From IMG/VR virus record IMGVR_UViG_2534681997_000007, positions 1 through 23,530 of that record: 23,530 bases of DNA. One strand, written 5' to 3'. This DNA is from a virus (Duplodnaviria; Heunggongvirae; Uroviricota; Caudoviricetes). The translations under genes were made by a program, and so were the position numbers. Below are positions 172 through 10,476 of this stretch, in pieces (positions within the stretch are counted from its first letter, which is position 1; the number at the start of each line of letters is the position of its first letter). The notes beneath the pieces were generated by a model, which worked only from the letters and a program-made list of their open reading frames with translations, was not told the origin of the DNA and did no database searches.

Positions 172-1221
172 TTATGCAACCTCTGCCGCCACATTGTCGC
201 CAACATACAGCGATAACGGATTGAGGGTTACAGCTTGTTCAAGGTGGTCAGGAGCAAAGTGCGCATACTTCATTGTTTCTCGAATATTGGCATGTCCGAG
301 AATTTTCTGCAGCACCAGTATATTCCCTCCGTTCATCATAAAATGCGCACCAAAAGTATGACGCAAAACGTGCGTCTTCTGCCCTTCCGTCAATTCAATA
401 TTCGTTAGTTTGAGCATCTTTTTAAACTCCTGATAGCAGGGTTTAAACATTCTGCCTTGACGTACGGACAACTCGTCGTACAGCCATTTAGGAATAGGAA
501 CTGTGCGATTCTTCTTACCTTTGGTTTTGGTGAACGTTAGTTTATATGGAGAAAGTTGAGGTCGGGTCAATCTCTCCGCTTCCCCCCATCGAGCGCCGGT
601 TGCAAGGCACACCTTAACAATCATGGTGAGGTCTTCTTTGCCGTATTGCTCGCAGGCTCGAAACAGCTCCGGGAGCTGAGACAAAGTTAGCCAGGACATT
701 TCTTTCTCAGCTTCTTTGAATACTCGGATCCCATCAAGTGGATTGGGTAGGCTCCACTCCCCTAACCGGCGGAGCTCATTAAACACTGCTTCTAGGTATT
801 GTTGTTCGCGATTGACGGTTATAGGTTTGGCGATCCATTTCGAGGGGTCTTTATGATAACCATTGTCTATTTCACCACGTAATCGACGGTCACGATAATG
901 AGCCCAGTCTTTCGCGGTAAGGCGAGATGCAATCGGGTCGCCAAGTCCATTACATACGATTTGAAGCTTTGCAAACCTCGACTTACTGGCGACTAACGCT
1001 TGACCGTGCAAATTGTGCCAAAGCTGAATAATCTCGCTTAAGCGTCGGCGGTCTTCTTTCTTGCCGAGCCACGGCTTATCTTCACTCTCGCTTTTGGTAA
1101 ATGCTTCAAATGCCTCGGCCTCACCTTTGGTATTGAACTGCCGACGTATACGCCGCCCTTCTCGACCATTTGGATAGAGTTCACACAACCATTTTCCACT
1201 TTTTTGTTTACTTACAGTCAT
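172..1221 (-). CDS. int: Tyrosine recombinase, phage integrase (P2/186 family)
   Basis: 349-aa ORF; C-terminal catalytic region HVLRHTFGAHFMMNGGNILVLQKILGHANIRETMKYAHF (R...HxxR...Y signature); positioned at prophage end, transcribed toward the att side. Confidence 0.9.
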   Translation of the reverse strand: MTVSKQKSGKWLCELYPNGREGRRIRRQFNTKGEAEAFEAFTKSESEDKPWLGKKEDRRRLSEIIQLWHNLHGQALVASKSRFAKLQIVCNGLGDPIASRLTAKDWAHYRDRRLRGEIDNGYHKDPSKWIAKPITVNREQQYLEAVFNELRRLGEWSLPNPLDGIRVFKEAEKEMSWLTLSQLPELFRACEQYGKEDLTMIVKVCLATGARWGEAERLTRPQLSPYKLTFTKTKGKKNRTVPIPKWLYDELSVRQGRMFKPCYQEFKKMLKLTNIELTEGQKTHVLRHTFGAHFMMNGGNILVLQKILGHANIRETMKYAHFAPDHLEQAVTLNPLSLYVGDNVAAEVA

Positions 1222-1593: not shown

Positions 1594-2439
1594 TTAAACA
1601 TGCTTTTCCAAAGTAAAAATAACCGCACCTGATGGTGTGATATCTGAAATATTACATTCAAACTCAGCAGACTTATTTGATAACCTGACCTTTCCGCCTG
1701 GCAACCTGATTACGTCAAAAACATCGAGTGCGCCATCAATACCAATAAGCCAGCGACCATTTCCTATCTTCGAGTTAGAACTATCAACAAGCCAAGATGT
1801 GCTCACACCATCAATAAACACTAAATCATCAGTATTTGATGGAACCATAGATATATCAGGAGTCCAGCGTCCGATATCTTTGAGTTCGCCAGCCTCGAGG
1901 CGGCACTTTCTAATCGTTAAAGCATTTGCCGGTTCACCATCATTACTGTTACGCATCTGGCCTTTTCCGGTTGATAACCATTCTAACGATACGCCAGTAT
2001 CAAGGGCGCAAGTGACAACCACGTCACCGGGGAAAAAATCGCGTCTAACCCAAGTGCTTATAGTGCCGGAAGATATACCTAATAAATCTCCAAGCTCTTT
2101 TTGCAGAGTAAAACCATACGCATCGAGAATCCGACGCAGAACCGCCCTCCCTCCATTTGCCATGATTTCATCATAGAGTTGCTTACCTTTAAGCTTAGTT
2201 TTCACCACTTCAAATCTTGCATTTGCAAGCTCACCATTAATTAGCCATCGCAGGTCAGCTCCAGTATCAAGAGCACACTCAACGAAAACGTTGCTAGGGA
2301 TTACGTTTCTAGCAAGCCAGCTACTCACGTTGTTTGCATGTATGCCAAGCCTTTCGGCTAGTTCCTTTTGCTGCTTAAAGCCGTATGCAGAAAGGACACG
2401 TTCCAATGCGGCAGACGCATTAACATCATTTTTAGACAT
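1594..2439 (-). CDS. cI: Immunity repressor, phage 186 CI-like, with two tandem copies of the CI-type HTH domain plus a C-terminal oligomerisation-type domain
   Basis: Start placed at the Met of MSKNDV (2439) rather than ORF-track 2628, which would run through the divergent promoter and the apl start; internal duplication LERVLSAYGFKQQKELAERLGI...CALDTGADLRWL / LRRILDAYGFTLQKELGDLLGI...CALDTGVSLEWL. Confidence 0.75.
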   Translation of the reverse strand: MSKNDVNASAALERVLSAYGFKQQKELAERLGIHANNVSSWLARNVIPSNVFVECALDTGADLRWLINGELANARFEVVKTKLKGKQLYDEIMANGGRAVLRRILDAYGFTLQKELGDLLGISSGTISTWVRRDFFPGDVVVTCALDTGVSLEWLSTGKGQMRNSNDGEPANALTIRKCRLEAGELKDIGRWTPDISMVPSNTDDLVFIDGVSTSWLVDSSNSKIGNGRWLIGIDGALDVFDVIRLPGGKVRLSNKSAEFECNISDITPSGAVIFTLEKHV

Positions 2440-2453
2440 ATGACACCAACAAG

Positions 2454-2475
2454 AATTTTGTTTACAACCAAAATT
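2454..2475. promoter_or_regulatory. Inverted repeat AATTTTG-N8-CAAAATT overlapping the -35 of the lytic promoter; candidate operator
   Basis: Perfect 7-bp arms at 2454-2460 and 2469-2475 read directly. Confidence 0.35.
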
Positions 2476-2489
2476 TAGCGATCTATATT
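2461..2489 (+). promoter_or_regulatory. Sigma70-type early lytic promoter (pR-like): TTTACA-17 bp-TATATT
   Basis: -35 at 2461-2466 and -10 at 2484-2489, each one mismatch from consensus, 17-bp spacer; sits in the cI/apl divergent intergenic region ~65 bp upstream of the apl ATG. Confidence 0.55.
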
Positions 2490-2552
2490 GGTGCTCACCG
2501 ACCAAGATGCACACCACTGCACTACATTTCAAACAACAGGAGATAATGCGAT

Positions 2553-2924
2553 ATGTCAGATGCAAAATCAATCTCGACGCACGACTCGCAAAACTCACAA
2601 AATCAAACTGTGCTGCTAGATCCAACACAGTTTGATGCCATCGTTACCGCCATGCTGCCAGCTCTACAGACAATGATTCGCTCCGCTATGTCAGACACGA
2701 TGACTGTGAAAGACTTCGCCGCTACTCGCGGTGTTAGCGAGCGTCTGGTCTGGCAATGGCTCGATGAGGGAGTCCTTCTCAAAGCTCCGACCAAAGACTT
2801 TTCCAACAAAGAGGAAGCTGCTAAACGAAGCCGAACCCTCGTAAATGTAAAAGCATGGCGCGATAAGCTGACTCAACAAGCGATTGATTGTCGCTACATC
2901 GACCAGCGCACCGCTCTTAACTGA
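2553..2924 (+). CDS. apl: Apl/Cox-like excisionase and transcriptional regulator (HTH)
   Basis: 123 aa; SD AGGAGA 9 nt upstream; HTH segment MTVKDFAATRGVSERLVWQWLDEGVL; first gene of the rightward operon opposite cI, as in 186. True start could be a downstream Met. Confidence 0.6.
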   Translation: MSDAKSISTHDSQNSQNQTVLLDPTQFDAIVTAMLPALQTMIRSAMSDTMTVKDFAATRGVSERLVWQWLDEGVLLKAPTKDFSNKEEAAKRSRTLVNVKAWRDKLTQQAIDCRYIDQRTALN

Positions 2925-2956
2925 ATTTGATTATGCAAGTTAGAGGGAATTTAACC

Positions 2957-3466
2957 ATGTTTGATTTTCAGGTTTCCAAACATCCCCACTATGACGAAGC
3001 ATGCCGCATTTTCGCACAGCGTCACAACATGGCGAAGCTGGCCGAGCGTGCAGGTATGAACGTTCAAACGTTACGTAACAAGCTCAACCCGGAACAGCCT
3101 CACCAGTTCACGCCGCATGAATTGTGGCTGCTGACTGACCTGACCGAAGACTCAACCCTCATTGATGGTTTTTTAGCGCAGATTCACTGCCTACCATGCG
3201 TGCCGGTTAATGAGTTGGCTAAAGACAAATTGCAGTCTTATGTCATGCGCGCAATGCGTGAACTCGGCGAACTGGCGAGCGGCGCGGTATCTGATGAACG
3301 TCTGACCACTGCCCGTAAGCACAACATGATTGAAAGCGTTAACTCCGGCATTCGCATGTTGTCATTGTCGGCTCTGGCGCTGCATGCACGTCTGCAGACT
3401 AATCCAGCTATGTCGAGCGTGATCGATACCATGAGCGGTATTGGCGCATCGTTTGGTCTGATTTGA
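2957..3466 (+). CDS. cII: CII-like lysogeny-establishment regulator (186 CII family)
   Basis: Start moved to ATG 2957 (MFDFQVSKHPHYDEAC...) with SD GAGGG 9 nt upstream; ORF-track start 2927 is TTG. Position immediately after apl. Confidence 0.7.
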   Translation: MFDFQVSKHPHYDEACRIFAQRHNMAKLAERAGMNVQTLRNKLNPEQPHQFTPHELWLLTDLTEDSTLIDGFLAQIHCLPCVPVNELAKDKLQSYVMRAMRELGELASGAVSDERLTTARKHNMIESVNSGIRMLSLSALALHARLQTNPAMSSVIDTMSGIGASFGLI

Positions 3467-4493: not shown

Positions 4494-6713
4494 TTGGCTG
4501 TTCAATTCGCTTATCCGTGGAACGTCCCACGGTCGGCAATCTCCAGCCCATACCTTACTTATGAGCAACAGCATCGTCGCGACCGTATGTTCGCGGCTTT
4601 GCTGCATGCAAAAAAGGTGCTTTCTCTCCAGCCCGACTGCGTACGGTTAGATGTTTATCGCACTGCTGCGGTGCTGGAGCAAAATCAGGGTAGTCAACGA
4701 GCCAATGCATTTTTAATCAGCTTCTGCAAAAAGGCATTGCCGCGTCTTGAACTGGTCGCAAAAAAATACGAATGCGCTGGTATCAACAGCAAGGTATCAA
4801 CCGCTGTTTTTGGAAGTCATTTTGATACTCAGCAAATGCAATATCTGTCGTCACGCATGGTTAATATGGTCGCCCAATATAACCGTCTCCCGGACATGTC
4901 GCGCGCTGATGTTGACCTGTTGGCCGCTGATATTGCTAATTTCATTCGTGGTGAACTTGCCAACATTAATGACCACGGATTCGGCGAGCTTAAAACGCTG
5001 TACACCTGGTATATTCGTGCTGGCTTTATTTCCCTCCAATTCAACGTTATCCCACCACATTGGGAGCGGGTTGAAAAAAAATATGTCGGTGCGGATGAAA
5101 TCGCACCGGCTATCGCCAAAATGTTTAACGATGGGTGGTGGCGCGGTCGTTTGCGCCGTGTTGCAGCTACGTGGCGCGAACACCTGCAAATTGCAGTCGG
5201 CAACGTCAGTAAGAAAAAAAACACTTACGCGAGTAAAAACTGCGTGACTGACTGGCGTGAACAAAAGCGCCGCACTCGTGAATTTCTCAAAGGTCTGGAT
5301 CTCGAAGACGAAGACGGCAACCGTATCAGCCTAATTGAAAAATATGATGGCTCAGTTGCTAACCCTGCGATTCGCCGCTGTGAGCTCATGACCCGCATTC
5401 GTGGGTTTGAAAACATCTGTAATGAGCTCGGTTATGTCGGTGAGTTTTACACTCTAACCGCGCCGTCAAAATATCACGCCACGACTAAAGCCGGTTACCG
5501 TAACAGCAAATGGAGCGGTGCCAGCCCGGCTGACACGCAAAACTATCTAACCGGTATCTGGGCGCGTATCCGTGCCAAACTACATCGGGAAGATGTCCGT
5601 ATTTTCGGTATTCGTGTCGCCGAGCCCCATCACGACGGCACTCCACACTGGCACATGCTGATGTTCATGCTGCCGGAAGATGTTGAATATGTTCGCTCCA
5701 TCGTCCGTAAATACGCATGGAAAGAAGACCGCCACGAACTGAAAAGCGATAAATCCAAAAAAGCACGTTTCCACGCCGAGTCCATTGACCCGGAGAAAGG
5801 CAGCGCAACCGGCTATGTTGCTAAATACATTTCAAAAAATATCGACGGTTATGCTCTCGATGGTGAAACCGATGATGAAAGCGGTGAGCTGCTGAAAGAG
5901 ACAGCCCCCGCCGTTTCAGCATGGGCTGCGCGCTGGCACATCCGTCAGTTTCAGTTTATTGGTGGTGCGCCGGTGACGGTTTACCGTGAGTTGCGTCGCC
6001 TCGCTGATACCGAAACCGCGCACGGTCTGAGCGTTGAGTTTGCCGCCGTCCATGATGCCGCCGACGCTGGTGACTGGGCTGGTTATGTTAATGCTCAAGG
6101 TGGGCCGTTTGTCCGTCGCGATGATTTACAGGTGCGCACACTGTATGAACCGCGTACCGAGCTTAATCAGTACGGTGAGGAAACGGTATGTATTAAGGGG
6201 GTCTACGATTCCTCCATAGGTGCAGGAAGCCCGATTTTAACCCGGCTCACTCAGTGGAAGATTGTTCCGAAGCGTGCTGTTGATTTGGCCGTTGACCTTC
6301 AGGACGGCAAAGCCGTCCCTCGGAGTTCTGTCAATAACTGTACGGGAAGCGAAAGCGATCCACCGGAACTCGATTTATCAAAACCCCTGAGTCGACGTGA
6401 AAGACGAGAGCTGACAAACCGACTCAGGAAGCAAAAGCCAGCAATACGGCGAAAATTCATCCACGGAACGGATGAGCAAAACGCAGCTATAGCTAAAACT
6501 ATCGACGAGATACAACTTACAACTGGCATCACAATCAGCCGGGGCGAAGCCCTGCACCTGATGGCCGGTGGTAAAAGTTGTTTTGATGACAAATGGCTAC
6601 GCGGAACATCAATGGGTGAAATATTTTCCGCTGCGCCATCACATCAGGCTAAAGCCAAGAAAATCCTTAATCGCGTTGCTGCGATGGCTGAAGCAGCAAA
6701 AACCAATACCTGA
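4494..6713 (+). CDS. A: Rolling-circle replication initiator endonuclease gpA (P2 A / 186 RepA family)
   Basis: 739-aa ORF; HUH-type motif PHHDGTPHWHMLMF and catalytic tyrosine motif TGYVAKYISKNIDGYA; ORF-track start 4494 is TTG one base after the upstream stop, first in-frame ATG is 4587, so the start is uncertain. Confidence 0.9.
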   Translation: MAVQFAYPWNVPRSAISSPYLTYEQQHRRDRMFAALLHAKKVLSLQPDCVRLDVYRTAAVLEQNQGSQRANAFLISFCKKALPRLELVAKKYECAGINSKVSTAVFGSHFDTQQMQYLSSRMVNMVAQYNRLPDMSRADVDLLAADIANFIRGELANINDHGFGELKTLYTWYIRAGFISLQFNVIPPHWERVEKKYVGADEIAPAIAKMFNDGWWRGRLRRVAATWREHLQIAVGNVSKKKNTYASKNCVTDWREQKRRTREFLKGLDLEDEDGNRISLIEKYDGSVANPAIRRCELMTRIRGFENICNELGYVGEFYTLTAPSKYHATTKAGYRNSKWSGASPADTQNYLTGIWARIRAKLHREDVRIFGIRVAEPHHDGTPHWHMLMFMLPEDVEYVRSIVRKYAWKEDRHELKSDKSKKARFHAESIDPEKGSATGYVAKYISKNIDGYALDGETDDESGELLKETAPAVSAWAARWHIRQFQFIGGAPVTVYRELRRLADTETAHGLSVEFAAVHDAADAGDWAGYVNAQGGPFVRRDDLQVRTLYEPRTELNQYGEETVCIKGVYDSSIGAGSPILTRLTQWKIVPKRAVDLAVDLQDGKAVPRSSVNNCTGSESDPPELDLSKPLSRRERRELTNRLRKQKPAIRRKFIHGTDEQNAAIAKTIDEIQLTTGITISRGEALHLMAGGKSCFDDKWLRGTSMGEIFSAAPSHQAKAKKILNRVAAMAEAAKTNT

Positions 6714-6790: not shown

Positions 6791-6810
6791 TACTGTATAA
6801 ATATACAGTA
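6791..6810. promoter_or_regulatory. LexA box (SOS operator) TACTGTATAAATATACAGTA
   Basis: Perfect CTGT-N8-ACAG core with AT-rich spacer, one mismatch to the 20-bp consensus; 21 bp upstream of the 6831 ATG; a possible -35 TTGCCA lies at 6777-6782. Confidence 0.7.
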
Positions 6811-7013: not shown

Positions 7014-7195
7014 AAGCATGATTGAACGACTCTCTTTGCAGGTTTTTTGACAGAAGTTAATAGCTTTTTCGTTAACCAAAGAAAAGACTGATAGTACAAA
7101 CGACTAGTAGAATCATCACCATGGCAAAAAGATAGTTTATTTAACTGAAATCACTGGATTTTGATGAAGAAATAGACAGTTTTACATAATGTTTG

Positions 7196-7224
7196 TTGAT
7201 TCACCGAAGACACGAACCTATAAT
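7196..7224 (+). promoter_or_regulatory. Sigma70-type promoter TTGATT-17 bp-TATAAT upstream of the Panacea-domain gene
   Basis: Consensus -10 at 7219-7224, -35 at 7196-7201, 17-bp spacer; ~150 bp upstream of the 7373 ATG. Confidence 0.5.
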
Positions 7225-7308
7225 TCGCGCGCTACCATGCTTATCGTCATTGCTATTTACTGTTATTTGTAAGTATTGACGCTACTAGAGTAGTCAGTTA
7301 GTCTCAAA

Positions 7309-7328
7309 GTAGATGGTTATCCATCTAC
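7309..7328. promoter_or_regulatory. Perfect palindrome GTAGATGG-TTAT-CCATCTAC between promoter and Panacea gene; candidate operator or 5' UTR hairpin
   Basis: 8-bp arms with 4-bp spacer read directly. Confidence 0.4.
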
Positions 7329-7372
7329 ATAAGATGCATCGCTTTTATGCGAGGTTCATCTAAGGAGGTTTT

Positions 7373-7843
7373 ATGTACAACCCGATTTGCATCGTGAACG
7401 AATTTATCGAACGCGCTAAAAAAAACGGGGACAACCTCACCCACATGCAGGCTCAAAAGCTTCTTTATGTTGCTCATGGTTACAGCCTAGCTTTTCTTAA
7501 CGAGCCTTTGCTTGAAGAACCAGTGTGTGCGTGGAGGTACGGTCCGGTAATTCCATCGGTCTACTATGCGCTGCGCCATAATCGTTCAAACCCGATATCA
7601 GAAAAAGCATCATCAACATCGGTAGTACCGGAAAAGATAGACAGTAAAACTGCATCACTTCTGGACATGATTTACGAAACATACGGGAAGCTTTCCGGTG
7701 TTCTCTTATCTGAATTTACTCATCGCCCAGGTACTCCATGGTCACAGGCGATAGAAAAACGAGAAAACATCATCAGTGATGCCAGTATCAAAGACTATTA
7801 TTTGCGTCTAGCAAGACGAGATCCAGTTTGCAACGGATTGTAA
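7373..7843 (+). CDS. Panacea-domain (DUF4065, GepA/SocA-like) protein; candidate antitoxin or immunity component
   Basis: 156 aa; strong SD AAGGAGG 5 nt upstream; motif MQAQKLLYVAHGYSLAFLNEPLLEEPVCAWRYGPVIPSVYYAL matches the DUF4065 core as I recall it. Confidence 0.75.
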   Translation: MYNPICIVNEFIERAKKNGDNLTHMQAQKLLYVAHGYSLAFLNEPLLEEPVCAWRYGPVIPSVYYALRHNRSNPISEKASSTSVVPEKIDSKTASLLDMIYETYGKLSGVLLSEFTHRPGTPWSQAIEKRENIISDASIKDYYLRLARRDPVCNGL

Positions 7844-7860
7844 AATCAGATTATTATTGA

Positions 7861-7885
7861 CCCCGCTTAAACTGCGGGGTTTTTT
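7861..7885 (+). terminator. Intrinsic-terminator-like hairpin CCCCGC-TTAAACT-GCGGGG followed by TTTTTT, ending immediately at the start codon of the next gene
   Basis: 6-bp GC stem, 7-nt loop, 6 T; the only purine-rich SD-like element for the downstream ATG (GGGG, 7876-7879) is inside the 3' arm. Confidence 0.5.
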
Positions 7886-8482
7886 ATGTCGTCCGATAAT
7901 GAAACAATCAAAAATCTGATGAAAGAGGCTATACAGAGTCATGTTACTGATCTCTTCAAATCTCTTGATGTAGGCCCTAAACCAAAGCCGACAGAAAGAT
8001 CCTCTCCCGCCAATGATGACCCCGAAGCAAACCTTTCTGCTGAAGACAAAGCCAAAAAAGAAGAACAGGCTTTTGATTCGCCTACTGATGATGAGCACGA
8101 AGAGTTGCAAGGTCTTGCATACTGGAGTCTGGAGCACAGGCGTCGGATAGACTCTCTTACAATTCAAAAAACACAAGAAGAAATTGTACGTATCTCTTGT
8201 GAAAACGACGACCTTAGGGCTAAAACAAAGAACAACCATGCAGTTGCCCGTGGCCGTCAAATAGACAACAGACTGCGTTTACAATTAGCTGCTGCAACCT
8301 TTAAGTTCATGCAGTATTGGTGTGGTTTTGTCGCTTTCATTGTTGCTTGGTATGTATTCGCCCACTATGGCAAACCTGAAAAAGAAGTCATCATTGCACT
8401 ACTCGGAACCAGCACAATAAGTATTATTGGTTTAGTTGGTTTTGTAGTTAGCGGTTTATTTAAATCAAAAAAAGATGAATAG
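7886..8482 (+). CDS. Small membrane protein with acidic N-terminal region and two C-terminal transmembrane helices; candidate toxin/abortive-infection effector
   Basis: 198 aa; hydrophobic segments FKFMQYWCGFVAFIVAWYVFAHY and VIIALLGTSTISIIGLVGFVVSGLF; N-terminal ~130 aa rich in D/E/K; AT-rich. Confidence 0.65.
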   Translation: MSSDNETIKNLMKEAIQSHVTDLFKSLDVGPKPKPTERSSPANDDPEANLSAEDKAKKEEQAFDSPTDDEHEELQGLAYWSLEHRRRIDSLTIQKTQEEIVRISCENDDLRAKTKNNHAVARGRQIDNRLRLQLAAATFKFMQYWCGFVAFIVAWYVFAHYGKPEKEVIIALLGTSTISIIGLVGFVVSGLFKSKKDE

Positions 8483-8532
8483 CACAGCATACCTAAAACA
8501 GGCTAACCCCACTGAAGAAAAACTATTTTTTT

Positions 8533-8574
8533 GTGCCAGCAGAGTTGAACAACTCGCACCACGGGGCGTTAGTT
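8533..8574 (+). repeat. Left copy of an imperfect ~42-bp direct repeat (core GTTGAACAAC...GGCGTTAGT)
   Basis: 31 of 42 positions identical to 8938-8979, including exact 10-mer and 9-mer blocks in the same register. Confidence 0.35.
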
Positions 8575-8696
8575 CTGCCTTTCAAAGTTTCTCGATGTGT
8601 TATTGATTACACACCCGTGATGAATGGGACGTTACCTTGGCGGGTTTTATAGTGGCGCTTTGGCAGCACTAAATAAAATTCATTGAAGGCGATAAT

Positions 8697-8906
8697 ATGC
8701 ATCGACTACCGGGCGAGATTCCGCAGCACAAAACTAAAAGCATACAACTTATGGCTATCGTTCATCGTCTGCAGACGATAATGGTCAATGAGAACCTGAC
8801 TCCAGCAGAGCTAGTCGGGTGTGCAGAAATAGTCAGGGATAATTACGGCAAGCTGGATAATATCAGCAGACCGACACAATACTCACCTCCACCACGTCGG
8901 CGATAG
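8697..8906 (+). CDS. Small hypothetical ORF between the repeat copies
   Basis: 69 aa; ATG with weak SD GAAGG; no recognisable domain. Confidence 0.3.
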   Translation: MHRLPGEIPQHKTKSIQLMAIVHRLQTIMVNENLTPAELVGCAEIVRDNYGKLDNISRPTQYSPPPRRR

Positions 8907-8917
8907 CAAACGCCGTC

Positions 8918-8942
8918 AGCGCTGAAACTCGCTTTCAGTGCT
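8918..8942. other. Stem-loop AGCGCTGAAA-CTCGC-TTTCAGTGCT between convergent genes
   Basis: 10-bp stem with one G-U pair; no U-tract on either side, so not a canonical terminator. Confidence 0.35.
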
Positions 8943-8979
8943 GGCGGGGTTGAACAACGAGCTACGCGAGGCGTTAGTC
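8938..8979 (+). repeat. Right copy of the imperfect ~42-bp direct repeat; overlaps the stop codon of the HNH gene
   Basis: See left copy at 8533-8574. Confidence 0.35.
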
Positions 8980-9852
8980 GAATTTTACAGGCGACAATGG
9001 TTGTTTTAATTCTTTATCGTGGAAATGTTTGTAGCGTGGATCCTTACGAGCCTCATCGGAAAATACCGATCGATTATCTTCTATCCTAAGATGGCCCGAG
9101 TCTAATAAACGATGTAGGTCTGAAGCAAGTGCAATACCGTTTTCAACACTTGGCGCTCCGCCTGCCGCGTGGCTTAAAATGTGACACGCATCAATCGCAA
9201 AGCGAGAGCCCGTAATTGCGCAACATCCCCTCCAATTGGCTAATACGTCCTTTCTGAACCGGCCTTGAGCTTTTCGTATTTTTGTCAGCGAATAACCATC
9301 TTCAACATATGAACGCTGCTCGAATGTAGGTGATGGTTCGGTTATCTGGGGTAATTGTTGCAAACCATTCTGGTTAACCTTAAATTCTTCCCAAAGATGC
9401 TTACTAACTATTTTACCTTGGCGAGCGCACCAGTTGGTAAAATCTCTCTTTTCGTATTCATCTAAAGACGCCAGCCATTCGCGTAATTCAGAAGTGGCTA
9501 AAACATTTTGATGTAATTGACGATTTTGTGGCAGTGGTGCCAACCTCTCTTTTTTCTCGCCTCGCCGGTAAGGGGGAAGTTTCAATGTGTCCTTCATTGA
9601 AATCGTGCCAGCTGCGTTGGTTCGGACGCTGAATTGACCAGCATACTCAACTTTTTTAGCAGTTGTGGGAGTTGTTGGCTTTCTGTTATTAGCCATCCAA
9701 CGCTGTACTTGGTGCAAGACTTCACTAGCTTCCAGCCCCTTACTTATCAATTCTTTGACATATTTTTTAACCTCTTGTTTATTTGGTTGGTATTCGAATA
9801 AATACGGTGAAAGCTTTAAAATTTCTTTCATTGAAGTTTTTGTTTCAGCCAT
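8974..9852 (-). CDS. HNH-endonuclease-domain protein with ~200-aa N-terminal domain of unknown function; candidate defence nuclease
   Basis: Start at the Met of MAETKT (9852) preceded by GGGGGGA; C-terminal motif CCAITGSRFAIDACHILSHAAGGAPSVENGIALASDLHRLLDSGHLRIED, HNH_2-like as recalled; AT-rich. Confidence 0.75.
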   Translation of the reverse strand: MAETKTSMKEILKLSPYLFEYQPNKQEVKKYVKELISKGLEASEVLHQVQRWMANNRKPTTPTTAKKVEYAGQFSVRTNAAGTISMKDTLKLPPYRRGEKKERLAPLPQNRQLHQNVLATSELREWLASLDEYEKRDFTNWCARQGKIVSKHLWEEFKVNQNGLQQLPQITEPSPTFEQRSYVEDGYSLTKIRKAQGRFRKDVLANWRGCCAITGSRFAIDACHILSHAAGGAPSVENGIALASDLHRLLDSGHLRIEDNRSVFSDEARKDPRYKHFHDKELKQPLSPVKFD

Positions 9853-10028
9853 AAATCCCCCCATTTTAATTTTCTAAAAATGCACTTAATGTCATTTTTC
9901 TCAGCGTGCATTCATGGTGCATGGTTTTGCATGCGAATAATGTCTCATTTTTATGGGTGCGCCACCAGTGCTGGCGCGGATCCAGAGTAATCATGCAACT
10001 GCATTAAAACCGCCCCATAAAGCGGGCA

Positions 10029-10047
10029 GGCGTGGCGGGGAAAGCAT
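10029..10047. other. cos site (19-nt cohesive-end sequence GGCGTGGCGGGGAAAGCAT)
   Basis: Matches the phage 186 cohesive end as I recall it (P2 differs at two positions); lies between the cargo island and portal gene Q as expected for a P2-like prophage. Confidence 0.6.
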
Positions 10048-10057
10048 TGCGCGCCAG

Positions 10058-10158
10058 CGGTGGTGCGTATTATTAAAAATTATCGTCTGAGAACGTCGTG
10101 ACGGCGCTGTAGTGGCCGGGTGTGATCGTGGGCGCGTGGTGCGTCTGTGGCGTGGTGC
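10058..10158. repeat. Three copies of (C/G)GTGGTGC(G) within 100 bp on the Q-proximal side of cos; candidate terminase recognition repeats
   Basis: CGGTGGTGCGT at 10058-10068, CGTGGTGCG at 10135-10143, CGTGGTGC at 10151-10158. Confidence 0.35.
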
Positions 10159-10251
10159 TAAAGGATGGGATCAGTTGCACAATTTTACGGTTTCGCTTTG
10201 GCTAATATCCATATTGAGACTTTATGTTCCCCACAACAGTTGGAGGCTTTA

Positions 10252-10476
10252 ATGGATAACTATCATATTACAAAAGATGGCGATAAGTGGAAGTTGCAAA
10301 AAGAGGGCAATGATCGCCCTAGCAAGACCGCGACCACAAAGGCCGAGCTGATTAAAACAACATCTGAGTTTATGTCGAACAAAACAGGCTCGGTCAAAAT
10401 TCACAAGGAAGATGGGAAAATTCAGGAAGAACGCACTTATCAGAGAAAAGATGATCCTAAAAAGTCTAAAGGCTAA
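10252..10476 (+). CDS. Small basic protein, DUF2188-like, between cos and the portal gene
   Basis: Start at ATG 10252 (MDNYHITKDGDKWKLQKEGNDRPSK...) with SD GGAGG 5 nt upstream; ORF-track start 10165 lacks an SD. Confidence 0.55.
   Translation: MDNYHITKDGDKWKLQKEGNDRPSKTATTKAELIKTTSEFMSNKTGSVKIHKEDGKIQEERTYQRKDDPKKSKG

Follow-up and report, generated by a model that had tools for sequence, protein, structure and literature searches.

The immunity repressor CI of phage 186 forms dimers that assemble into a 14-mer wheel, which wraps or loops DNA. Its binding sites are annotated in the GenBank record of 186 at pR (three), at FL within cI, at FR in the apl-cII spacer and at pB (two); FL, FR and pB share the motif ATTCAC-N5-GTGAAT, whereas the central pR site differs (TATCTC-N8-GAGATA). 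The single helix-turn-helix (HTH) domain of 186 CI is reported to recognise inverted repeats of two types (PMC1904268, citing Shearwin et al. 2002), and FL and FR loop to the CI wheel at pR (PMC3675496). CI of phage PSP3 has been described as having a longer C-terminal domain (CTD) than 186 CI (Nilsson et al. 2011; PMC3448106). Here, we describe the cI gene in a 23,530-nt stretch of Caudoviricetes DNA (IMG/VR record IMGVR_UViG_2534681997_000007; this whole stretch is hereafter called the window). Its product carries two tandem 186-type HTH heads, termed D1 and D2, and comparison with its relatives suggests that these heads divide between them the two kinds of operator that one head reads in 186.

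Architecture and distribution of the tandem-head repressor

The cI gene of the window is an open reading frame (ORF) on the minus strand that translates to a protein of 281 amino acids. A preliminary description, made from the sequence, had read this product as two tandem 186 CI-type DNA-binding domains followed by a CTD. This reading held, coordinates included: a Pfam search matched PF07022 (Phage_CI_repr) to two stretches (whole-protein E = 1.5e-47; best stretch, residues 99–163) and PF16452 (Phage_CI_C) to residues 176–269, and a purpose-built domain hidden Markov model (HMM) placed both heads, as shown in Table 1. The proposed duplication was confirmed by BLASTP of the D1 half against the D2 half, which gave 31/61 identities (51%) in an ungapped alignment with E = 1e-23, far beyond chance. 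As the preliminary description had stated, 186 CI (192 amino acids) has one such N-terminal domain (NTD), a single head being placed by the domain HMM. The 281-residue, two-headed protein departs in this respect from the one-head architecture of 186-type CIs (NTD, linker and CTD; about 190 residues). We rejected the possibility that D1 and D2-CTD are separate genes, as the reading frame is uninterrupted and, in about 65 loci, continues through the linker.

The position of the additional head was indicated by the alignment of relatives. In a search of 1.84 billion representative proteins, relatives of about 190 residues all matched residues ~95–280 of the query only, and the solved 186 CI structure 2FJR was collinear with residues 100–274 only. 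Since these relatives, 2FJR and the 186 CI CTD structure 2FKD align to D2 and the CTD, we concluded that D2 plus the CTD is the canonical 186-type unit and that D1 was added N-terminally together with the linker (about 85 residues in all). When the heads were placed in a neighbour-joining tree, the D2s nested among single-domain NTDs, and the D1s formed their own long-branched clade. Judged from these comparisons, D1 is a second HTH head that was gained, N-terminally, by a complete canonical unit of D2 head and oligomerising CTD. A search with D1 alone as the protein query for the source of the extra head returned six fragments only; D1 may stem either from an old duplication within the gene or from a fusion with a head of another lineage.

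The CTD resembled that of 186 CI in structure as well as in Pfam family. In a Foldseek search, the modelled CTD matched 2FKD with a TM of 0.90 and a root-mean-square deviation of 2.0 Å, which is suggestive of wheel assembly. LexA chains were no more than distant fold matches to the CTD (TM about 0.4–0.6, 13–20% identity), and no Peptidase_S24 match was found among the Pfam matches of the protein up to E = 1. The likeness to lambda CI is one of outline: both have an HTH head and an oligomerising CTD, the CTD fold is distantly LexA/lambda-like, and by analogy repression in the window would be stabilised by distant operators and DNA looping. Lambda CI is not a member of this family and has a head of another family; unlike lambda CI, the window CI gives no Peptidase_S24 match, and its induction is expected via an antirepressor rather than by RecA-stimulated self-cleavage. 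In the AF2 model, pLDDT was below 50 at residues 73–81, and a helix was predicted at residues 86–95, both in the region joining the heads. NCBIfam held no model specific to the protein, and PADLOC reported nothing relevant to the repressor.

The tandem-head architecture was found to be widespread. The best 120 matches in a collection of 5.8 billion proteins were all 267–289 residues long, and a scan of one genome per species gave 62 tandem loci in Enterobacter, Klebsiella-related bacteria, Kosakonia, Serratia, Pectobacterium, Dickeya, Erwinia, Pantoea and others; together with phage records and the window, 67 tandem loci were analysed. The same architecture is present in phages PSP3, SW9 and Midge and in prophages of many Enterobacterales genera, and the window CI is 91.5% identical in amino acid sequence to SW9 CI and 73% identical to PSP3 CI. 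PSP3 CI (GenBank AY135486; AAN08403, 286 amino acids) owes its extra length to an additional N-terminal head, contrary to the published account (PMC3448106). Literature searches (Phage_CI_repr, tandem HTH, PsP3 repressor) found no description of a duplicated head, PMC3448106 being the sole paper located that remarks on the protein's architecture. The repressor is a variant of the known 186-type CI, widespread and undescribed in the literature searched, and not a new kind of system.

Two side observations concern the heads of relatives. In Enterobacter sp. EA-1 (L044), the D2 recognition-helix region reads ICWISRPGPSAPH in place of LGDLLDISSGTIST, after which the frame is restored; a compensating frameshift pair or a sequencing error in an otherwise conserved gene seems likely. 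The tree of heads also suggests further, independent tandem duplications of Phage_CI_repr heads. Both heads of the cI product of Klebsiella phage 4LV2017 (L005, positions 1417–2358; 313 amino acids) lie in a different single-domain clade, away from the heads of the window, and listed with it are the CI-like proteins P0138, P0180, P0193, P0194, P0224 and P0252, whose repeated heads are seemingly of independent origin. The repeated-head CI-like proteins include a group of 315–358 residues with three matched stretches, one protein of 525 residues with six or seven partial repeats and one of 1170 residues with five.

Palindromes linked to the two heads

The switch region of the window corresponds to that of 186 in its gene order (int-cI and apl-cII) and may share its convergent-promoter layout, the predicted pR scoring well and the tentative pL poorly (Table 1). 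The topology of the candidate sites is also that of 186, with a wide-spaced palindrome (7-N8-7) at pR and compact palindromes at the positions that correspond to FL, FR and pB. The sequences of the sites differ from those of 186, being AATTTTG-N8-CAAAATT and ACTTGCA-N2-TGCAAGT, respectively. Moreover, one head is reported to read both site types in 186, whereas the window protein has two heads between which the site classes are apparently divided; FL of 186 lies between the NTD and the CTD, whereas that of the window follows D1.

The predicted pR was the only sigma-70-like promoter found by the promoter scan between cI and the first rightward gene, and its -35 (TGTAAA) and -10 region are conserved across relatives. 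The palindrome AATTTTG-N8-CAAAATT over the pR -35 had been named in the preliminary description as a candidate operator, and its distribution strengthened that proposal. The copy at pR is the only match with zero mismatches in the window, occurs once in 41.8 kb of E. coli MB06232 DNA that include the same switch and is the best genome-wide match in SW9. With a spacer of 7 or 8 nt, matches of at least 13/14 were restricted to the window, SW9, one Yokenella locus (L009) and one Enterobacter locus (L008), all others reaching at most 11, and these are the four loci with the D1 recognition helix ANN[VI]SSWLAR. Other D1 groups carry other symmetric elements at or beside the pR -35, namely AATCGCAAATGCGATT in the Kosakonia group (L013–L032; at pR, about 70 nt upstream of D1), TCGCAAAATGCGA in Serratia and a repeated AAATCGA in Midge. 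The Kosakonia element has the same 7-N2-7 geometry as the compact palindromes, with different outer bases, and in that group the -35 is succeeded by a third half-site, AAATCGC. This suggests that the pR operator geometry differs between D1 groups, that of the window being 7-N8-7.

In the window, inverted repeats with ATWTTGGT half-sites extend over the pR -10/+1 (ACCAAAAT-N10-ATATTGGT at 2467–2492 and ATATTGGT-N8-ACCAAGAT at 2485–2508), the first of which is kept in the Yokenella locus by paired changes (ACATCAATAT...ATTTTGATGT); they are possible additional D1 sites of uncertain status. The tentative pL is convergent with pR, and its position is analogous to that of 186 pL at the start of apl. 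Weak TTGATTTTG repeats at 2558–2573 and 2593–2608 were considered as D2 sites and rejected as too weak (8/14).

The compact palindrome, ACTTGCA-N2-TGCAAGT, was searched with a threshold of at least 11/14. The FL- and FR-like candidates were the only two matches in the window, and shuffles gave a mean of 0.98 per window. The complete genomes of SW9 and PSP3 contained exactly three matches each: one within cI, one in the spacer between apl and cII, and one 45–60 bp upstream of the late activator gene B/ogr/pag; this last, pB-like site overlaps a TTGCAA -35-like hexamer. The top three matches in Midge fell at the same three positions (cI, the apl-cII spacer and upstream of B/ogr), and E. coli MB06232, whose switch is 99.9% identical to that of the window, had the same three, with a pB site of 13/14, and one in rDNA. 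Shuffled genomes gave about 0.9–1 match per genome. Palindromic sites are hence present at sequence level at pR and at FL-, FR- and pB-like positions, the pB one lying outside the window. Among the 67 tandem loci, the matches piled up in four 30-nt bins relative to D1, at +180 (30/67), -570/-540 (23/67), -90 (11/67) and -270 (6/67), with a background of 0.007 per bin per locus; the FL position was matched in 30 loci and the FR position in 23.

The FL candidate lies in coding sequence, and its codons were examined in 48 non-redundant tandem cI genes with 175 evaluable columns. The codons of A72 (GCA in 35/36) and N73 (AAT in 35/36) had the lowest synonymous entropy, ranking 1 and 2, and that of A74 ranked 6th, whereas the neighbouring codons of T68, G69 and E70 vary freely. 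A Leu at residue 71 is encoded by CTT in all cases but one. In lineages whose linker peptide differs (NSHLQ, NLNLQ), a palindrome of related sequence, TTCGCATTTGCAAA or ATTTGAATTTGCAAGA, is still present but displaced by 9 nt, an argument against coding constraint alone at FL. These patterns point to selection on FL as DNA.

The compact palindrome also accompanies single heads that resemble D2. In 18 single-domain CI genes of Rahnella, Ewingella and Franconibacter (about 196 amino acids; L069–L086), the head is 74–79% identical to D2, and the Rahnella and Ewingella proteins (196 amino acids; NTD 76–79% identical) have the same SSGTISTWVRR helix. In the loci from Rahnella and Ewingella, the near-perfect palindrome AACTTGCAtTTGCAAGTT begins the pattern: it is found 82 nt before the head (81 nt in one of them) and sits exactly in the 17-nt spacer of a TTGACA...TAGATT promoter directed away from cI. 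The first lytic gene of the Rahnella type is unrelated to the Apl analogue of the window; therefore, the presence of the palindrome goes with the D2-like head rather than with that protein. The CIs of these three genera differ from that of the window in having one head, in the palindrome lying in the pR spacer instead of the gene, and in another first lytic gene. In the Pectobacterium group, a D2 helix STATISTWIRR occurs together with a variant TTCGCA half-site, which hints that the D2 helix and the half-site co-vary.

Mosaic variation of D1 and D2

D1 was variable and D2 conserved among the tandem repressors, identity to the window ranging from 50 to 67% in D1 and from 76 to 97% in D2 across groups. 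The values for D1, D2 and the CTD were 61%, 91% and 78% in PSP3, 50%, 91% and 75% in Midge, and 67%, 92% and 75% in Enterobacter MGH24; the D1 of SW9 was 97% identical to that of the window. In the 48-sequence alignment, invariant columns were densest in D2 and included T126, I127, S128, T129, W130, R132 and R133 of the recognition helix. The upstream DNA of the window, PSP3, SW9 and Midge is near-identical from the Apl analogue to the pR -10; the differences are confined to the final ~40 bp around the pR -35 and continue into D1. Since the divergence is limited to this segment, the variable unit consists of D1 and a short operator segment, like an immunity cassette. CIs of PSP3, SW9, SEN1, Midge and RCIP0057 share the tandem architecture (67–92% identical overall), nearly the same D2 plus CTD, Apl analogue and TumA, and the same three D2-class sites. 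Except for SW9, these phages differ from the window in their D1 heads and pR -35 operator regions, and PSP3, Midge and the others are therefore presumably of different immunity.

Proposed mechanism and alternatives

We propose that D1 binds pR and that D2 binds FL, FR and pB, the tasks of the single 186 head being split onto two; the probability of this reading is, in our estimate, about 0.6. We infer the assignment of sites to heads, the oligomeric state and the looping from the placement of the sites and their co-variation with the heads. The CTD would assemble dimers, probably into a higher-order, 186-like wheel. Pairs of D2 heads would bind the 16-bp compact palindrome at FL, at FR and at pB upstream of B/ogr, and pairs of D1 heads would bind the immunity-specific operator over the pR -35, where neighbouring repeats may add D1 sites. 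One oligomer could then hold pR via D1 and FL or FR via D2, giving looped, cooperative repression as in 186. Because each candidate site is symmetric and of one half-site type, homotypic D1:D1 or D2:D2 pairs from a CTD-mediated dimer would fit.

Several points weigh against this division of labour. 186 has three pR sites, whereas the window has only one clear pR palindrome, and a search of the window with up to two mismatches gave no second copy (4 matches versus 1.8 expected, none plausibly placed); as this is nothing beyond chance, flanking sites of the D1 class are not supported. About 60 bp separate D1 from the pR operator, and their co-variation could reflect linkage alone; similarly, binding of the conserved TumA could account for how strongly D2 is conserved. 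Heteroimmunity of PSP3, SW9 and Midge was not found documented in the literature searched. The FR site is asymmetric, one half being ATTTGAT, and reaches only 11/14, and FL or FR is not clearly matched in the tandem loci of Lonsdalea and part of the Kosakonia group. At pR itself, the loci of the Serratia type contain a site of the D2 class (12/14), and the division of labour is therefore not absolute. Finally, the AF2 monomer (pTM 0.52, with low-confidence linkers) is uninformative on head arrangement or oligomerisation.

The preliminary description had taken the duplicated HTH to imply a different operator geometry. The data suggest two classes of operator, but a jointly read, new geometry was not borne out, the sites being symmetric palindromes of a single half-site type. 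According to that idea, D1 and D2 of one chain would form an intramolecular pseudo-dimer and read composite operators, one half-site each. The presence of two heads on one chain, with a linker that is partly of low confidence in the AF2 model, favours such an arrangement, as do the Serratia-type loci, where a D1-group palindrome and a D2-class site adjoin at pR. However, all strong candidate sites are symmetric with one half-site type (ACTTGCA/TGCAAGT; AATTTTG/CAAAATT), single-domain relatives use the same full palindrome and no conserved heterotypic half-site pair was seen; we regard the pseudo-dimer as quite unlikely. Single-domain relatives on the same operators had also been named as a result that would speak against the earlier proposal. 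The D2-like single heads do carry the D2-class palindrome at their own pR, a finding that proved informative rather than damaging.

D2 might alternatively do all the sequence-specific binding, with D1 serving, for example, as an antirepressor target or decoy, helping oligomerisation or clamping DNA non-specifically. By position, D2 corresponds to the 186 NTD, which is itself reported to read two site types, and sites of the D2 class are present at pR both in single-domain relatives and in tandem loci of the Serratia type. Yet Phage_CI_repr matches D1 over its full length and the recognition helix of D1 is typical, the palindrome at pR varies with the type of this helix, and the pR region of the window contains no good D2-class site (best score 8/14). 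In addition, the pR operator differs among phages whose D2 is 91–97% identical, and D2 alone could therefore not give distinct immunities, which makes this explanation unlikely. It is very unlikely that a conserved factor other than CI (a host protein, CII or the Apl/Cox analogue) binds the conserved palindromes or that they are kept for coding or RNA reasons, even though conservation among PSP3, SW9, Midge and the window extends to the Apl analogue and CII, FL lies within a gene and FR adjoins the cII ribosome-binding site. In Rahnella and Ewingella phages, the palindrome at pR goes together with a D2-like CI, but their first lytic gene is unrelated to that of the window. The 186 record gives direct repeats as the targets of Cox/Apl proteins, 186 CI sites are annotated at the positions of all three palindromes, and the lineages with another linker retain a palindrome at FL. 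All three explanations appear less consistent than the division of sites between D1 and D2 with the symmetry of the sites, the mosaic pattern and the single-domain comparison.

Possible origin of the two-headed gene

When distances were anchored on the heads, the FL palindrome lay ~71 nt upstream of D2 in tandem genes, and the pR operator of the single-domain relatives lay ~74 nt upstream of their only head. The stretch before D2 (LYDEIMANGG, in the predicted linker helix region) resembles a single-domain N-terminus (MQLDELEGG). FL inside cI may thus be a fossil of the ancestral pR operator that was captured into the frame when the D1 module fused upstream. These likenesses, which are no more than suggestive, fit an in-frame 5' extension that brought D1 and a new pR, with the old operator and leader becoming linker codons.

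Prophage context and neighbouring genes

By sequence identity, the window is a PSP3/SW9/Midge-type prophage (Peduoviridae, Eganvirus) of E. coli. Its switch region is 99.9% identical to several E. coli chromosomes, in which the gene is annotated 'phage repressor protein CI', and 83–93% identical to PSP3, SW9 and Midge. The features of the window are listed in Table 1.

Table 1 Positions of the repressor gene, candidate sites and neighbouring genes in the window
Feature	Position	Strand	Basis and remarks
int	172–1221	-	ORF, gene order
DUF2511 gene, 112 amino acids	1246–1584	-	Between cI and int; hydrophobic, signal-peptide-like N-terminus
cI, tandem-head 186-type immunity repressor	1594–2439	-	281 codons and stop; ORF, translation, Pfam
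C-terminal oligomerisation domain Phage_CI_C, residues 176–281	1597–1914	-	Pfam, E = 4.6e-19; Foldseek
D2, canonical Phage_CI_repr head, residues 98–163	1951–2148	-	Domain HMM; recognition helix SSGTISTWVRRD, near-invariant; counterpart of 186 CI NTD by position
Inter-head linker, residues 75–97 (23 residues)	2149–2217	-	AF2 model, alignment with regions upstream of single-domain heads
FL-like candidate, D2 class, inside cI	2215–2230		TCTTGCATTTGCAAGC, 12/14 to ACTTGCAnnTGCAAGT; encodes E-L-A-N-A-R at the D1/linker junction
D1, extra N-terminal Phage_CI_repr HTH head, residues 9–74	2218–2415	-	Domain HMM; recognition helix HANNVSSWLARN; varies among relatives
pR operator candidate, D1 class	2454–2475		AATTTTGTTTACAACCAAAATT, AATTTTG-N8-CAAAATT; spans pR -35
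Predicted pR	2461–2489	+	TTTACA 2461–2466, 17 nt, TATATT 2484–2489; 10/12 in promoter scan
Inverted repeats with ATWTTGGT half-sites over pR -10/+1	2467–2508		Palindrome listing
pL for cI, tentative	2543–2571	-	TTGATT, 17 nt, CATTAT; 8/12, below scan threshold; read from sequence
Apl/Cox analogue, first rightward gene, 123 amino acids	2553–2924	+	ORF; no Pfam match
FR-like candidate, D2 class	2925–2940		ATTTGATTATGCAAGT, 11/14; between Apl-analogue stop (2922–2924) and cII start (2957)
cII (Phage_CP76)	2957–3466	+	Pfam, E = 2.2e-46; start MFDFQ by analogy with 186 cII
fil-like and other early genes	after cII	+	Gene order
Replication gene A	4494–6713	+	Gene order
LexA-box-like TACTGTATAAATATACAGTA (CTGT-N8-ACAG)	6791–6810	+	Sequence
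tumA homologue, 60 amino acids	6831–7013	+	92% identical to PSP3 TumA; behind LexA-box-like site
SocA/Panacea antitoxin-like gene	7373–7843		Window cargo
198-residue ORF without family	7886–8482		Window cargo
HNH_2 protein	8974–9864	-	Window cargo
DUF2188 protein	10165–10476		Window cargo; matches PADLOC candidate PDC-S16

A putative Tum-type antirepressor gene behind a LexA-box-like site would be a further likeness to 186. In PSP3, the upstream half of a split tum region was reported as the antirepressor (PMC3121763), and the tumA homologue of the window is likely an SOS-controlled antirepressor. A DinI/TumB gene follows tumA in PSP3, SW9, Midge and E. coli MB06232, whereas in the window ~360 bp without an ORF and then different cargo follow. 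The region 7014–10476 of the window looks like a variable defence or toxin-antitoxin hotspot.

The Apl analogue matched phrog_3554, of unknown function, and gave a weak match to the Cox-like phrog_575 at residues 48–110; it is annotated as Cox in Midge. Its first ~45 codons are of low complexity and overlap the guessed pL and the two TTGATTTTG repeats, and an inverted repeat with 14-nt arms, ATCAAACTGTGCTG/CAACACAGTTTGAT (2602–2636), within the gene folds better than 200/200 shuffles (z = -4.3). The DUF2511 gene between cI and int is conserved in PSP3 (gp28), SW9 and Midge; it would be co-transcribed with the repressor in a lysogen and is a possible lysogenic-conversion gene. In the MB06232 prophage (L092), the capsid gene is fused by a deletion to a tail assembly gene (32344–33145), both annotated as partial. 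Judged from this sequence, the prophage is defective, yet it keeps cI, FL, FR and the pB site.

Implications for phage immunity

186 CI is a textbook alternative to lambda CI, and its single head, reported to read two unrelated operator types, is one of its oddities. A natural and widespread relative in which these jobs are seemingly split offers a way to dissect how the wheel uses pR and the flanking sites, and the published description of PSP3 CI is corrected by the present comparison.

We tentatively extend the division of labour to a modular two-headed switch, a proposal to which we give slightly less than an even chance. In such a switch, D1 and the ~40 bp pR operator would be the minimal exchangeable immunity cassette, and D2 would keep the FL/FR/pB network and a common antirepressor interface. 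If this is true, immunity would be changeable by swapping only D1 and about 40 bp of operator, whereas the pB/FL/FR wiring and probably the sensitivity to TumA would be constant across immunity types. The resident CI of one immunity type should then bind FL, FR and pB of heteroimmune relatives, and several immunity types should respond to induction by one TumA. Cross-talk via shared D2 sites and a shared antirepressor would thus be expected between heteroimmune prophages of E. coli, Salmonella, Klebsiella and Enterobacter, and the exchange of a very small cassette would explain how immunity can diversify.

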